Below, piece after piece: positions 251 through 63,632 of a stretch of 64,000 nucleotides of DNA. The notes below the pieces were generated by a model, which did no database searches, had not been told where the DNA came from, and saw only the letters and a list, made by a program, of their open reading frames with translations. The first letter of the stretch is position 1. Each line of letters starts with the position of its first letter. The stretch spans positions 9,114,001 through 9,178,000 of the forward strand of contig OX597836.1 of NCBI GenBank assembly GCA_951406725.2. The letters run 5' to 3'. The translations under genes were made by a program, and so were the position numbers. Source of the DNA: Octopus vulgaris. Its lineage: Eukaryota.

Positions 251-475
251 ATATATACCAACTCGCGTGTTCCTTTTCAACCTTCTACACACACATGTAC
301 ATGTGTGTGTGTGTGTATATATATATATATATATATATATATATATATATATATATATGTATATATATAAAGTTAATCCAAACAAGAAAACAAAAACAAA
401 AAAACAACAACAACGCAAGGACGTGGAACAAATAAAGTATTATTGGACGCTCAGGAAAGAAGGGAAGAAGGAGGA

Positions 476-508
476 TTTGACGTTTCGAGCGGAGCTCTTC
501 GTCGGAAA
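476..508 (-). ncRNA. Minimal type I hammerhead-like motif (U4C variant) in a short element at ~371-575
   Basis: Minus strand reads TTT-CCGACGA-A-GAGC-tcc-GCTC-GAAA-CG-TC-AAA. A related copy at 63489-63521 has CTGACGA. Confidence 0.6.
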
Positions 509-589
509 CATAGGAGAAGGAAAGATCCAGAGAAGGGAAGACAGGGGAAAAAAATCGCTAGAGGTACAGACGAGGTCACATACTAAAAG

Positions 590-840
590 ACAATCGTGAG
601 CGTATACCATACCACTAAGCACGCGCGCCTTCACCTATATATAATTTTATAAAATTATATATAGGTGAAGGCGCGTGGCTTAGTGGTTTGGTATACGGCT
701 CACGATTGTAAGGTCATGAGTTCAATTCCTGGTGACGACGCGTTGTGTCCTTGACCAAGAAGCGGAGCGGATTTCCCGCTGCTTCAATCCACTCAGCTGG
801 CAAAAATGTTTTGTACCTGTATTTCAAAGGGGCCAGCCTT
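590..840 (+). mobile_element. tRNA/CORE-type SINE (665-840) with a fold-back inverted copy of its head (590-635)
   Basis: A box TGGCTTAGTGG, B box GAGTTCAATTCC. Palindrome centred at 649/650. Confidence 0.75.
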
Positions 841-2442
841 GTGTATGTGTGTGTGTGCATGTCTGAGTGAGTGAGTGAGTGAGTGAGTGTATGTGTGTGC
901 GTGTGTGTGTGTGTGTGTGTATGTGTGTGTGTGCGTGTGTGTATGTGTGTGTGTATGTGTGTGTGTGCATGTCTAAGTGAGTGTGTGTGCGTGTGTGTGT
1001 GTATGTGTGTGTGTGTGTGTGCGTGTGTGTGTGTGTGCGTGCTTTCTCCGTGTTTCAGTTTATCTCTCACAGTTTTAGGAACGATATCGGTGTGTTAACA
1101 CCCCTGTAACCTAGCGCTTCTTCAAAAAAACAAGTCCATAAGGTAAGTATCAGAACTAAAAGAAGTTTTAAGGTCGATCTAAGCGGCAAATCCCCTCATA
1201 GTGGTGCCCCAGCATGGACGCTATCAAATGGCTGCGACAAGTGAAAGAGTGAAGGAAGTATCCATCCAGTAAATGCTATAACTGTCAGGATTCGAACTTG
1301 AAGATGCTAGGATTGCACACAGACACACACAACATGCACACACACACTCACACACACATATTTTTACATATATACGTATATATACACATACAACATGCGC
1401 ATACACAAGCACAAAGAGACATACAAGCTCATGCATACACATATATATATATTCGCATATTTACAAACACAAAGGTACATCTATACTCAGACACACACAC
1501 ACACACAAACACACGACTAACAGACAGATTGTGATAGAGTAGAATTCATTAAAATATCATGAATGAACACAAAAGACGAAATATTACAAATATTGGATAA
1601 ATAAGAAAAGCAGAGTCAGCAACATTAATATGTGTGTGTGTGTGTGTGTGTGTGTGTGTAATGCATATATATAAATACATATACATATATATATATATAT
1701 ATATATATATATATATATATATGTATGTCTGTATGTATGTATGCATGTATGCATCAATATACGGCTAAAGGTATGTATATATGCATTCTGGTCACTACTA
1801 CTTAAGTAAGAACAAAAGAGAACAAAGTCATGGAAAATGTAGTAGTAGTAGTAGTAGTAGTAGTAGTAGTAGTAGTAGTAGTAGTAGTAGTAGTAGTAAA
1901 AAAACAACAGCAGGAACAACAGCATTCGCAACGACGGTAGTAATAATAATAATAATGATAATAAGAAGAATAAGAATAATAATAATAATAATAATAATAA
2001 TAATAATAATGATAATAATAATAATAATAATAATAATAATAATAATAATAATAGAGGGGGAGTAGTGATTTTGCGACTTAAATTTAGATGAATGAAGACT
2101 TTTTTTTTTTAATTATGAAATAAATTGTCCAATTTAAAGACGGCAACAAAAGCAGTTTAATCTAGTTCATTAACAGAAATATTTCCGCTTTGCATTTTCC
2201 AGCAAATGTATGTTAAACTATATCATATATGCATACATGAATACACACATATATATACATACATGCATACATACATACATACATACATACATACATACTT
2301 ACATACATACATACATACATACTTACATACATACATACATACATACATACATACATACATACATACATACATACACATATATATATATACATATATATAT
2401 ACACATACACACATGCATATATATTCGCGTATATATATATAA

Positions 2443-2673
2443 GGCGGCGAGCTGGCAGACACGTTAGCACACCGGGCGAAATACGTAGCCGTATTTCGTC
2501 TGCCGTTACGTTCTGAGTTCAAATTCCGCCGAGGTCGAATTTGCCTTTCATCCTTTCGGGGTCGATAAATTAAGTACCAGTTTCGCACTGGGGTCGATGT
2601 AATCGACTTAATCCCTTTGTCTGTCCTTGTTTGTCCCCTCTATGTTTAGCCCCTTGTGGGTAGTAAAGAAATA
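2443..2673 (+). mobile_element. SINE family A (GGCGGCGAGCTGGCAGA head), monomer
   Basis: B box GAGTTCAAATTCC. Many similar copies in the window. Confidence 0.9.
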
Positions 2674-3168
2674 TATATATATATTTACATACATATACGT
2701 ATATGTAGATATATATATGTATAAGTGTATATAGAGAATGCACACTCACACACAAGCGCACACACGTACACACATACAGAATTTTGAAAAGAGTTACCAG
2801 TAGTTTCATGTCGTGGAGATACGCCAATTTTGCAGATTTGTATGACATGCCATGTGTCTCCACATGGAATTTACATAACATGTGTTTCGAAGGAATCCTT
2901 CAGGCTCAGGGCATACTTTTGGTCTTATTTGAAAAGACGCTGGTCCATGAAAAACATGAAAAGAAATGAGAAGAAAAAGAAGGAAGTTGATATTAAAAAA
3001 AAATGAAGCGAGAAGAAAGAAAATAAAATTTCAAAAATCAAATAAACTTAGATTTGTGTCCCATTTGACTGTAGAAACCATAACTAATATATCTGGTGTA
3101 GAATAGTATAACAGAGATGAGGCCAATGTCTGTGAGATAGTTACTCAATCTGAAGAGGGTTTTGTCCT

Positions 3169-61022: not shown

Positions 61023-61395
61023 ATAATAATAATGAAGTTATTGTATACAGTGCTCAGGTGCACCACAACTTGTCAGAAAGTGCGTATAGAGTGTGTGCAG
61101 TAATGTACAAATGTCTGGAAAGCGAACAATGCATGAGTCAGATACATGCTTGCGTGTGTATGGAGGGGAGAAAATCAGGTGTAGTGTTGGCGAATCTCAG
61201 GAAGCATGGAAGTTTTGAAGGATGCAGTGCTCCGACAACTAACAACTGATGCCAGCAGTTTGTTCCATGCTTCAGCAATTCTCAGTGTGAAAAAATGTTT
61301 CCTGAAGTCATGGGAGCTGTGCTGTTTTCTGACTTTGTAAATATGTCCACGGGTGTTAGACGGGTGGAGTTTGAAAAGGTGCTCAGAGTTATTGT
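61023..61395 (-). mobile_element. CR1-group LINE 3' end
   Basis: SNTRGHIYKVRKQHSSHDFRKHFFTLRIAEAWNKL..FKTSM, with an (ATT)n tail. Confidence 0.8.
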
Positions 61396-61773
61396 TTTCT
61401 TTTACTTGCTTCAGTCATTGGACTGCAGCCATTCAAGAACACCAAATTGAAGGCTTAGTTGAAGAAATCAACCCTATTGCTTTTTTATTTATTAATTTTT
61501 TATTTCCGTTCTTAGTTTAGAGTAGCAAGGCTGTTCACACACATGTATCATACAGTCTGTGTGTGAAATGTATGTATATGTATATATATGTGTGTATGTA
61601 TATGTATGTATATATATATATATATATATATATGTGTGTGTGTGTGTTATTTTTTTTATATATATCTATATATATTCACACACACACATACACAAATACA
61701 CATGCACATACATAGATGTATATACATATATATATACACACACACATACACGCATATATATGTATATGTATAC

Positions 61774-62171
61774 TCTTTACTCTTTTACTTGTTTCAGTCA
61801 TGTGACTGTGGCCATGCTGGAGCACCACCTTTGATCGAACAAATCGACCCCAGGACTTATTTATCGTAAGCCTAGTACTTATTCTATCGGCCCCTTTTGC
61901 CAAGCCGCTACATTGCGGGGACGTAAACACACCAGCATCGGTTGTCAAGCGATGTTGGGGCAACAAACACAGACATACATATATATATATATATATATAT
62001 ATATATATGACGGGCTTCTTTCAGTTTCCGTCTACCAAATCCACTCACAAGGCTTTGGTCGGCCCGAGGCTATAGGAGAAGACACTTGCCCAAGCTGCCA
62101 TGCAGTGGGAATGAACTCGGAACCATGTGGTTCGTAAGCAAGCTACTTTCCACACAGCCACTCCTACGCCT
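61774..62171 (-). mobile_element. SINE family D, full length
   Basis: Head, internal (AT)n, tail. Confidence 0.9.
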
Positions 62172-62770
62172 ATATATATCTACATCTATCTATCTATCTA
62201 TACATATATATATATATATATACACACACACATATATATACATATATAGATATATAATTCAGGTAATATTACATTGGGTGGTGCAAGGTAATTGGTACAT
62301 ACAAATAATGCTGAGGTTGTTTTGCTGCCTAAGACTCGCTCTCATAGTGCAGCTAAAAGCAGGAATGTAATAACTACCTAATGATAATCAGCTATAGGTG
62401 TTTCTTCCATTGAGCAGGTGCAGGTATATGCACAATAGGATGAATGCAGAACCAAATAAAACAACTGGTATTAGGTTAGATTAAGACATTTATATATTTA
62501 ACCTTTTAGCATTAAACCAGCCGTACCCAGCCCAACTATGTCTGTTGTTTTTGGTTCAAAGTGGCCAGGCCTAGCCTACTCTACAAAGCCATTCTAAAAA
62601 CAGACAATAGCATCATTGAAATCTCAAAGCTATGAGACAATACAGGATTAATTCAAAACAATGTGAATAGATAAGCTTTACACTCGGAAGAGTAATTTGA
62701 AGACTTGAAAGTTAAACATGAAGGTTGGCTTGTTACATTATTAAATATCATAAGCAGGGAGGAAAGAAGT

Positions 62771-62846
62771 ACAGCTGTTTCGAGAATTGATGTTCAGATA
62801 ACACAGGGAGATGCACCATCTGAACAGCTATTCTCGAAACAGCTGT
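62771..62846. repeat. 29-bp-arm hairpin with HHR 3' halves (GAAA-CAGCTG-TH) on both strands
   Basis: ACAGCTGTTTCGAGAATTGATGTTCAGAT / ATCTGAACAGCTATTCTCGAAACAGCTGT. Confidence 0.65.
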
Positions 62847-63395
62847 CAAAGACTCTGCATGCCTTCCTATTTTCTTAGTAGATACATTAATACACAAAAA
62901 AACACACATATCTATTCAAACACACACACACACACACACACACACACACAAACACACACAAACTTATAGGGATTCAGCAAAATAATGTAAATACCACTTT
63001 TTATTCAATTATTTATTCCTATTGACAATATGACAAATTCAAATGTTCTATTTATATGTGTTTGTATCCATTATATTGTATATACCTTGTATTTCTTGAT
63101 GCAGCTCACTATTATTCTACTTATTATACAACATTACTCTTTTTTGTACACTTTTTTATGTACATTCCTTTATGTACACTGATTTGTTCTGCTTTTTTAT
63201 GTTTAACCCTACAGTCTCTTATGTGGTGGTTTAATAAAGTATGTGATTGAGTATTATCTGGTAATTGATATTTGATTTAGATGTATTTCTCCATTTTCTT
63301 ATCTTGTATATATATATATAATATATACACACACACATATATATATATATATATATATATATATATATATATATATATATATATATATATATATA

Positions 63396-63632
63396 TGACC
63401 ACGTGTGTATCATTGGTGATTTTCTTTCTTCATTTTCCCTTGAATTGAATTATTGAATTGAATTCCTTGGACCTTTCCCTTTTCTATGTTTCTGACGAAG
63501 AGCTCCACTCTAAATGTTAAATCCTCCTTCTTTCTTTCCTTTCCTGAGCGTAGCATCCAATAACTCTATATTTGTTCCACATCCTCGCGCTGTTGTGTTT
63601 TCTCTTTGTGTTTTCATATTTGGATTAACTAT
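63396..63632 (+). mobile_element. HHR-bearing element, homologue of 371-575, between (AT)n tracts
   Basis: CTGACGA-A-GAGCTCCACTC-TAAA-TG-TT-AAA (G12 mutated). Flanks match the reverse complement of 371-575. Confidence 0.65.

Follow-up and report, generated by a model that had tools for sequence, protein, structure and literature searches.

The 64-kb window (the whole stretch of Octopus vulgaris DNA that was analyzed) contains 16 inserts that carry type I hammerhead motifs with a palindromic stem III and that belong to 11 families (Table 1). Very probably, these inserts are hammerhead-bearing 3' ends of Penelope-like elements (PLEs), together with units lacking open reading frames (ORFs), whose copying into (TA)n tracts was likely the work of the RT/GIY-YIG proteins of full-length PLEs in the same genome. 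This accounts for a class of short repeats in the octopus genome.

Table 1. Hammerhead-bearing inserts and related features of the window
Positions	Strand	Feature	Details
370..580	-	Family D insert	3' end at (TA)n; U4C core 505, cut predicted after 479
8983..9097	-	Family E (A6U core), Neptune-type PLE 3' end fragment	Stem III decayed in this copy
9933..10313	-	Family B, 3' end of Hydra-like PLE	Core 10209; predicted cut after 10137; 3' tail reaching 9933; inverted 5' arm 10247-10313
10990..11035	-	Unverified hammerhead-like fold	Two deviations; no homolog among fetched loci
12295..12745	-	Family F retrozyme	Tandem unit of 354 nt, present ~1.3 times; 96-bp terminal repeat 12300-12395/12647-12742; core 12502, cut predicted after 12469
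13005..13241	.	Family J, inverted pair, old and decayed	Cores 13155(+), 13044(-)
21100..21408	+	GIY-YIG end of Neptune-type PLE ORF, decayed, frameshifted	68% to L125; no hammerhead motif recognized downstream
23330..23492	-	Family H insert	G3-C8 core 23464; predicted cut after 23428; stem I 7 bp, stem II 5 bp
25184..25334	-	Decayed family E copy (A6U lineage)	Flanked by (CA)n and (TA)n tracts
26496..26812	+	Family G	Partial copy of a circularly permuted unit of ~485 nt; GGAA replaces GAAA; core 26589, cut predicted after 26646
33783..33957	-	Family E (A6U core)	Cut predicted after 33874
36319..36880	+	Family A	Circularly permuted unit of ~540 nt, direct copy 36546-36880 with inverted 5' arm 36319-36532; core 36552, cut predicted after 36602
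39045..39213	+	Family C fragment	Short inverted arm
39944..40150	+	Family C, 3' end of Hydra-like PLE	U4C core 40017; decayed
59022..59139	-	Family N1, 3' tip of young full-length Neptune-type PLE pLTR	85% to L132; U3-A8 core at ~59121; stem I weak, A-U
59190..59436	.	Family C inverted insertion	On -, main copy (core 59326; long 3' end 59190); on +, shorter arm (core 59370; end 59435 before (TA)n)
59470..59756	+	Family I inverted insertion	U3-A8 core 59563; 5-bp stem II
62760..62850	.	Unverified: two hammerhead 3' halves in inverted arrangement, lacking the 5' core	
63463..63637	+	Family D insert, decayed	Core 63492

Hammerhead motifs in the window

At the level of sequence, the inserts are confirmed as real hammerhead self-cutting RNA motifs. 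The earlier note had listed six complete folds, and all six sit where it placed them, with three qualifications: a single inverted insertion comprises the folds at 59293-59330(-) and 59366-59403(+), which form its two arms and each show an A.A mismatch where stem II begins at its base; the core at 23421-23471(-) is G3-C8 instead of C3-G8; and at 12463-12508(-) the base of stem II carries a C.A mismatch, a constant feature of family F. Among the ten variant sites that it also listed, eight belong to repeated families (476 and 63489 in D; 9070, 25285, and 33870 in E; 40017 in C; 59563 in I; 13155 in J) whose majority sequences keep both core halves and the palindromic stem III, but no homolog of the remaining two, at 10993 and 62771, was found within the ~1.7 Mb of fetched loci. 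At 62771 only the 3' half of the core is present, on both arms of an inversion. Absent from that first list were the motifs at 26589(+) (family G) and 59022-59139(-) (N1) and the family C fragment at 39045-39213.

It is extremely improbable that the folds as a whole are chance matches or artifacts of the surrounding inverted repeats. Inversion junctions do make false stems, as in the hairpin at 62771 and at 59563, where such a junction produces the apparent stem I, for which the family I majority gives no support, and the two sites without homologs among the fetched loci (10993 and 62771) may be matches of this kind. However, the window is clearly in excess of dinucleotide-shuffled controls, the comparison by which the earlier note had proposed to judge motif frequency: a strict descriptor found 3 loci, a number that none of 60 shuffles reached (shuffle mean 0.02), a variant-core descriptor found 6 against a mean of 0.1 (40 shuffles, maximum 1), and the loosest descriptor found 5 against a shuffle mean of 0.48 (1 of 60 reached 5). 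Moreover, majority sequences derived from non-inverted copies keep the stems and the core, and a chance or artifactual origin is refuted for 10 of the 11 families. An Rfam scan of the window gave no match at the gathering score, and below that score there were only microsatellite-driven miRNA matches among the matches listed (150 of 364); the Rfam Hammerhead_1 model was unmatched at E ≤ 10 in three small regions.

The canonical core (CUGANGA, GAAA, a 3-8 pair, and U-H at the cut site) is present in A, B, F, G, J, and most copies of D. In family majorities the 3-8 pair is C-G in A, B, C, D, E, F, G, J, and N2 and is compensated in H (G-C) and in I and N1 (U-A), while GAAA and the U-H at the cut site are invariant across the 11 families. 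Departures from the consensus are U4C, in C, N2, and part of D, and A6U, in E, where position 6 is U in 58 of 60 rows (which include duplicates from overlapping loci) and position 7 is variable; both core changes are expected to lower activity. The defects of the window copies of B, C, D, E, and G are mended in their family majorities. Stem I has 4 to 8 bp in A, B, C, F, G, and H and 3 or 4 mostly A-U pairs in D, E, and N1 and is absent in I. Stems differ in sequence across families and yet pair, stem I of family I excepted, and the 3-8 pair covaries across families. Covariation, which had been named as a check on these motifs, was taken from family majorities rather than from an alignment-based pair count because a MAFFT alignment across nine families left the stems unaligned. 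The palindromic nature of stem III, also claimed earlier, is supported by copies across the genome. Ten of the 11 palindromes form no hairpin alone, and the energy of the self-duplex is negative in 10 of 11 (−0.2 to −13 kcal/mol; +2.0 in family I). Single-strand folding, which is no test of activity, gave mostly stems I and II or alternative folds, with most monomers missing the active form.

With a library made of its own families, the window is ~5 times denser in motifs than a systematic sample of the genome (16 in 64 kb versus 20 in 400 kb). Extrapolation from that 400-kb sample suggests a load of ~100,000 motifs in 2.8 Gb; for family E, the most frequent in the sample (11 of 20), extrapolation gives roughly 77,000 fragments. 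First-look genome candidates, which are not copy numbers, amounted to 1743 for A, 1897 for B, 1235 for C, 3070 for D, 3133 for E, 2428 for F, 561 for G, 2216 for H, 1509 for I, and 44 for J.

Penelope-like 3' ends and ORF-less units

Judging from sequence, families B, C, E, and N1 consist of PLE 3' ends left by 5' truncation, as longer copies elsewhere in the genome continue into GIY-YIG ORFs of Neptune or Hydra-like type. An upstream ORF on the same strand with RT and, at its C terminus, GIY-YIG was found as a full ORF for N1 and as RT-to-EN similarity for E; the EN ends of B and C were recognized by motif, as was the RT for B only. Of 109 E hits, 16 rows from 12 independent places have family E at 630 to 880 nt downstream of the end of a Neptune-type ORF, and the E-linked ORF matches the protein of L132, a young element described below, at an E value of 5e-16. 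Family B sits 497 to 544 nt downstream of the end of the EN frame in four loci (L039, L040, L042, and L058), and family C is continuous over 1.4 kb with a CxxC-E-N-CxH EN end. In translations rather than in a tree, the Neptune-type CX2-5CxxC linker between RT and EN is seen in N1, N2, and E, and the Hydra-type CxxC and CxH flanking the conserved E and N, without CCHH, are seen in B and C. Among further marks of the Hydra clade (CxCX5C linker, RWK and DKT motifs, RT phylogeny), the linker was not seen in the B-linked frame, which has an Asn-rich stretch there, and the N-terminal RT was not recovered; a BLASTP comparison of the RT piece upstream of B to Neptune RT was not significant, and there was no Pfam GIY-YIG hit. 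Atlas look-alikes were found at 0.95 to 0.96, with PF01541 in 11% of the members of one set. L134 has a B-like match 1.1 kb behind a Neptune ORF; as it lies on the opposite strand and within a (TA)n tract, it was dismissed as an independent insertion.

A GIY-YIG search of the genome returned 6136 candidates, many in 781-aa frames, and young full-length Neptune-type drivers are present. One of them, L132, combines RT, a CxxxxCxxC linker, and GIY-YIG, and its 504-bp pLTRs are 100% identical, with a U3-A8 motif in each. The link to PLE pLTRs and retrozymes that the earlier note had put forward is upheld by genome-wide copies and by young full-length RT-GIY-YIG elements with a hammerhead motif in both pLTRs.

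Families A, F, and G are, by structure, non-LTR retrozymes, i.e., circularly permuted ORF-less units of ~540, 354, and ~485 nt (permutation periods of ~540, ~350 to 360, and ~480 to 490), with no ORF link found in 39, 35, and 28 hits, respectively. Two cores 354 nt apart occur in a family F dimer in L244; two complete tandem cores were not seen for A or G. The earlier description of 8 to 10 ORF-less families of 150 to 450 bp is only partly right: just A, F, and G behave as ORF-less circular units, and B, C, E, and N1 continue into PLE ORFs. The permutation and the lack of an ORF link in A, F, and G, and a contig joint that closes the 354-nt F unit, would also fit a scheme in which all families are ORF-less retrozymes that spread by rolling amplification of RNA circles, independently of any PLE end. 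This scheme is very unlikely, as it is refuted for the four families that run on into PLE ORFs, and the closing joint of F, which is also present in genomic tandems and in a far larger run whose kind is unrecorded (likely DNA), does not demonstrate an RNA circle. No run on record as RNA was found to contain family F, and the F unit is covered by contigs of three putative RNA runs, which are uninformative on strand, ends, or level.

For D, H, I, and J, no convincing link to an RT/GIY-YIG ORF was found among 61, 40, 29, and 30 hits, in flanks of mostly 1.5 kb and with queries that favored short copies; one row of family I lies 149 nt from an ORF, at 39% identity. No circular period was found for these four families.

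Insertion structure and a proposed mechanism

The 3' ends of copies are fixed and lie mostly at (TA)n, 5' truncation varies, and a shorter inverted 5' arm is often present; fixed 3' ends with such an arm are the signature of PLEs. A (TA)n tract lies within 6 nt of the fixed 3' end in 22 of 24 copies of B, 19 of 23 of C, 16 of 20 of D, 12 of 20 of E, 9 of 21 of F, 9 of 23 of A, and 4 of 7 of G, against a background of 4.7% of random positions, which bears out the microsatellite preference proposed for these elements at the outset; for family H the counts are 1 of 20 at the short end and 4 of 10 at the long end. The inverted arm is present in 20 of 30 loci of family B, 16 of them ending at the same base ±1. 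Tandem or inverted pLTR structure, an optional tail, and 5' truncation are all present in PLE-linked copies. The ends of copies do not map to the predicted hammerhead cut site.

We propose that the PLE protein would nick AT-rich DNA, as known PLE biochemistry implies, and that reverse transcription would start at one of two fixed internal sites, 50 to 140 nt apart and downstream of the ribozyme, producing both the long end and a shorter, inverted one, and would usually stop after 150 to 600 nt. The ribozyme would cut the tandem precursor RNA only as a dimer formed via the palindromic stem III, possibly with help from the PLE protein, and in A, F, and G the cut monomer may circularize and template more-than-unit copies. 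The solo copies in the window are probably inert.

It is possible, if rather unlikely, that the inserts are PLE derived but that the fold is kept as a signal for protein binding or dimerization, with cleavage dispensable in several lineages. The commonest family in the systematic sample, E, has the near-fixed U6 beside a variable position 7; the C, D, and N2 lineages have U4C; family I lacks stem I; and copies end away from the cut site. In addition, the passages of PMC11167929 on insertion in vitro report that it was independent of cleavage, hammerhead mutants leaving it unaffected and no reads ending at the cut site. However, the compensated 3-8 swaps and the invariance of GAAA and U-H across the 11 families fit selection on catalytic geometry, and the same source describes protein-assisted cleavage that depends on the 3-8 pair. 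A broader proposal, which we offer tentatively and rate somewhat short of an even chance, is that the genome is a natural, very high-copy library of PLE hammerhead core variants in which a Neptune lineage with A6U (E) and a lineage with G3-C8 (H) have both spread widely. If this is true, either the A6U core would work, rescued by dimerization or by the PLE protein, or a PLE could flood the genome with a catalytically crippled hammerhead, in which case PLEs would need the fold and not the cut.

Comparison with known systems

PLE hammerheads, cleavage as dimers, (TA)n targeting, and a PLE origin of retrozymes are already in print, and because this kind of system is known, our finding mainly extends it to a large cephalopod genome. 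How much was catalogued had been left open at first; as far as the pertinent passages of PMC4209133, PMC7229834, PMC8557442, and bioRxiv 10.64898/2026.07.22.740005 go, the kind is known and the fixed core variants U3-A8, G3-C8, U4C, and A6U are notable. No octopus hammerheads were found in the literature by listing, and nothing relevant was found on CUGUNGA, CUGUUGA, or CUGUGGA cores; Lunse et al. 2017, Arkhipova et al. 2017, and the supplement of PMC7229834 may include these variants or cephalopod motifs.

Among the closest known systems are the minimal hammerheads in the pLTRs of metazoan PLEs (Cervera and de la Pena 2014, PMC4209133). Compared with the motifs in the relevant passages of that paper, the stem III palindromes here reach 8 to 10 nt, the fixed G3-C8, U4C, and A6U lineages go unmentioned in those passages, and our estimated load contrasts with the 2,000 to 9,000 reported there, with descriptors that differ. 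The load comes close to the ~120,000 reported for the axolotl, whose genome is tenfold larger, again with different descriptors. Like the non-LTR retrozymes described in parts of PMC7229834 and of Li et al. (bioRxiv 10.64898/2026.07.22.740005), families A, F, and G consist of tandem or permuted units, each a few hundred nucleotides long, that lack an ORF, bear a single type I hammerhead, and co-occur with Neptune and Hydra PLEs. Unlike those retrozymes, they are mostly of 1 to 2.5 units, dispersed, and equipped with PLE-type inverted arms and tails; the retrozyme passages of these two sources name no cephalopod.

The Neptune and Hydra clades as characterized in sections of Craig et al. (2021, PMC8557442) share with our elements the C-terminal GIY-YIG, the (TA)n preference, and tandem or inverted pLTRs with a tail, and of their clade features the Cys linker is found in N1, N2, and E and the CxxC and CxH around E and N in B and C. 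Hydra-1_Obim and octopus Naiads, with (TA)n preference, are already among the entries of file S1 of that paper. The tails here are 50 to 140 nt versus 30 to 40 nt in its PLEs, the Asn-rich stretch of the B-linked ORF stands at the place of the Hydra linker, and N1 has an upstream overlapping ORF. As in the Anolis Poseidon PLE PAc, according to the corresponding parts of Frangieh et al. (2024, PMC11167929), two internal RT starts give a tail, the target is AT rich, and the pLTR hammerhead has a 3-8 pair. PAc priming is described there as not homologous to the target, whereas the fixed ends here frequently lie at short, target-like, TA-rich stretches within the element; microhomology priming is therefore possible in the octopus elements. 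The reason that PLEs keep a hammerhead is called open in the passages of PMC8557442 and PMC11167929 that deal with it. This genome offers test material, with young intact-looking drivers that have identical pLTRs and three ORF-less client units, and since it also holds U3-A8, G3-C8, U4C, and A6U lineages, cleavage and mobility are directly comparable within it.

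Hammerhead inserts and their families

The hammerhead inserts of the window are real and exceed chance. A structural descriptor comprising core, stem II, palindromic stem III and stem I was run on the masked window; its strict form recovered 3 loci, versus 0.02 on average across 60 dinucleotide shuffles, and looser settings recovered 4, 4 and 5 loci versus shuffle means of 0.07, 0.20 and 0.48. With variant cores, which entered the descriptor only after being noticed, 6 loci were found versus 0.1 in 40 shuffles searched with the identical descriptor. In total, 16 inserts from 11 families (labeled A to J and N1 here) were identified, in a window (contig C23 of a 2.8-Gb genome) that is one-quarter microsatellite and rich in short SINE-like repeats. 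Rfam detected none of these inserts. The earlier note had listed six complete folds, all of which proved real, two being arms of a single inversion, and ten variant folds, eight of which belong to repeated families, whereas those at 10993 and 62771 were unconfirmed; it had overlooked three inserts (see the table).

Searching the genome gave between 44 and 3133 first-look candidates for each family; in every search, 40 of them were scored and 20 to 30 fetched. Defects of the window copies were mostly repaired in the majorities of fetched copies: one stem II pair in family B, stems I and II in C, stem II and GAAA in D, stem III in E, and GAAA in G. The stems pair in spite of differing in sequence from family to family, and the core 3-8 pair is C-G, U-A or G-C, depending on the family. 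Stem III is a palindrome of 4 to 10 nt; in 10 of 11 cases it forms no hairpin by itself, and in 10 of 11 its self-duplex energy is below zero. Counting against a simple hammerhead reading, stem I is unsupported in family I and consists of only 3 to 4 weak pairs in D, E and N1, and single strands are mostly without an active fold.

Features of the window and of fetched loci
Source	Position	Feature
Window	590-709	Near-perfect 120-bp palindrome made of the initial part of a common SINE-like repeat
Window	6751-7149, 10548-10950	400-bp repeat, two copies 95% identical
Window	20675-20904	Short element; perfect 37-bp terminal inverted repeats
Window	26589(+)	Overlooked insert
Window	39045-39213	Overlooked insert
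Window	59022-59139(-)	Overlooked insert; tip of L132-type pLTR
Window	29338-29882, 35427-35842, 51767-52341, 55682-56425	Very common SINE-like family; head-to-tail partial tandems, 184-bp period
Window	56180-56425	Inverted arm on the SINE-like family
Window	39296-39787(-), 40666-41385(+), 49396-50032(-)	Open stretches, presumably resembling 3' fragments of LINE reverse-transcriptase ORFs; no Pfam match
L132	1768-5471	Young Neptune-type PLE with upstream ORF overlapping the RT-EN frame (also L121, L122, L123, L133)
L241	6790-7788(-)	Family B PLE ORF with Asn-rich stretch (also L242)

Insertion anatomy and associated Penelope-like elements

The 3' ends of the inserts are fixed, lie 3' of the motif and are common to copies, and the 5' ends vary. 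Among copies retaining the end motif, out of 20 to 30 per family, a (TA)n tract adjoins the fixed end in 22/24 for B, 19/23 for C, 16/20 for D, 12/20 for E, 9/21 for F, 9/23 for A and 4/7 for G, compared with a background of 4.7%; family H is the exception (just 1/20 and 4/10). Such tracts number 14.4 per 10 kb in the window versus 8.9 in the genome sample. A second, shorter fixed point ends an inverted 5' arm in many copies; the arm is present in 20 of 30 B loci, with the same end base in 16. Fixed ends and inverted arms are the inverted pseudo-LTR (pLTR) and tail of Penelope-like elements (PLEs) (PMC8557442, PMC3846280), which have been ascribed to two internal reverse-transcription starts (PMC11167929). 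The SINE-like family with its inverted arm resembles this tandem-plus-inverted structure; a hammerhead motif was looked for in it and none was found.

The genome contains 6136 GIY-YIG endonuclease (EN) candidates; 148 of the 150 scored were matches, many in 781-aa frames. One fetched locus, L132, is a full element with RT, Cys linker and GIY-YIG, whose two 504-bp pLTR copies are 100% identical and each bear a U3-A8 motif. A second Neptune-type family, N2, lies outside the window with a motif of its own; in a third (L126, L130, L137), our descriptor found no convincing hammerhead motif. The 3' region of the third carries a 290-bp tandem duplication. Among 109 E hits, a Neptune-type RT-linker-EN region lies 5' of family E in 16 rows from 12 independent places. 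In four independent loci, family B has on its 5' side an EN frame in which CxxC and CxH flank E and N, and the same motifs occur 1.4 kb upstream in family C, where the EN region is common to L073, L076, L071 and the inverted arm in L378. The EN motifs of B and C match the description of the Hydra clade, a putative label based on motif only; file S1 of PMC8557442 already includes a (TA)n-preferring Hydra element from an octopus.

The upstream ORF of the young Neptune-type PLE (466 aa from ATG in L132) gave nothing significant in Pfam. Its overlap with the RT-EN frame falls on a conserved T6A run, where a -1 frameshift may occur; an optional frameshifted ORF1 is mentioned in the legend to Fig. 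1 of PMC8557442, in a passage that leaves the clade unnamed. The long Asn-rich stretch of the family B ORF, from RT thumb to EN, resembles the N-rich inserts of rotifer Penelopes (PMC3846280). A Mariner-like element breaks this stretch in L242; its ends correspond to the 37-bp inverted repeats of the short window element, which is probably a MITE or deletion derivative.

Retrozyme-like families and a candidate mechanism

In families A, F and G, sequence past the short end recurs upstream on the same strand, with a period of about 540 nt in A (4 upstream loci), 350-360 nt in F (25/25) and 480-490 nt in G (4-5 loci); L244 holds two F cores spaced 354 nt apart. A search for a linked ORF in these families found none. 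Periodic and ORF-less, they are consistent, in sequence organization, with non-LTR retrozymes (PMC7229834), for which a PLE origin has been argued (bioRxiv 10.64898/2026.07.22.740005), and circular RNA is predicted for them. Leaving aside families D, H, I and J, which were assigned to neither type, the window swarm combines truncated ends of PLEs with retrozymes of PLE type.

From PMC11167929 and the genomic anatomy, we infer that a PLE protein would most likely bind the RNA close to the ribozyme and then nick a (TA)n tract, with reverse transcription beginning at either of two fixed internal sites. An early stop would be usual and leave 150-600 nt, motif included; the second start would yield the inverted arm. 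In tandem transcripts, the ribozyme would cleave solely in dimeric form (PMC4209133); solo copies are therefore probably inert. Just one of nine dimers cleaved in the retrozyme study (bioRxiv 10.64898/2026.07.22.740005).

Genome-wide load and comparison with known hammerheads

Forty 10-kb stretches at round coordinates on 26 contigs contained 20 fragments that belong to families of the window (E 11, D 4, B 2, and A, C and H 1 each) in 400 kb, versus 16 in the 64-kb window, a comparison in which the library favors the window. The de novo descriptor returned 19 rows (16 distinct motifs) from this sample versus 0-3 rows in 5 shuffles and revealed further hammerhead families. Families outside the window were also seen at L307, L323, L334, L336, L317 and L131, some as inverted pairs, with stem III palindromes of 4-8 nt. 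Extrapolation gives a genome load of about 100,000 motifs, with a counting error that spans roughly 60,000-170,000. Counts in the literature, obtained with different descriptors, are about 2,000 in Schistosoma, 4,000 in coelacanth and 9,000 in Xenopus (PMC4209133) and 5,000 in mussel and 120,000 in axolotl (PMC7229834).

The window families represent an already known type of element, to which only members are newly added. PLEs with U3-A8 (PMC4209133) and a viroid with U4C (PMC3088659) have already been published; C4 is the majority base in family C, and CpG decay of that U4C core may account for the canonical one at 59370. The testable remainder of the finding is the A6U and G3-C8 lineages. 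Position 6 in family E is U in 58/60 rows, and at least 90% U among 57 de-duplicated copies; position 7 shows all four bases. Low activity is reported for A6C (PMC3088659), and no A6U hammerhead was found in the literature searched, a set outside which the main PLE-variant paper (Lunse et al. 2017) falls. G3-C8 occurs naturally in 25 of 31 copies of family H, whereas the G3-C8 PLE hammerhead described in PMC11167929 is a mutant, in which it gave partial rescue.
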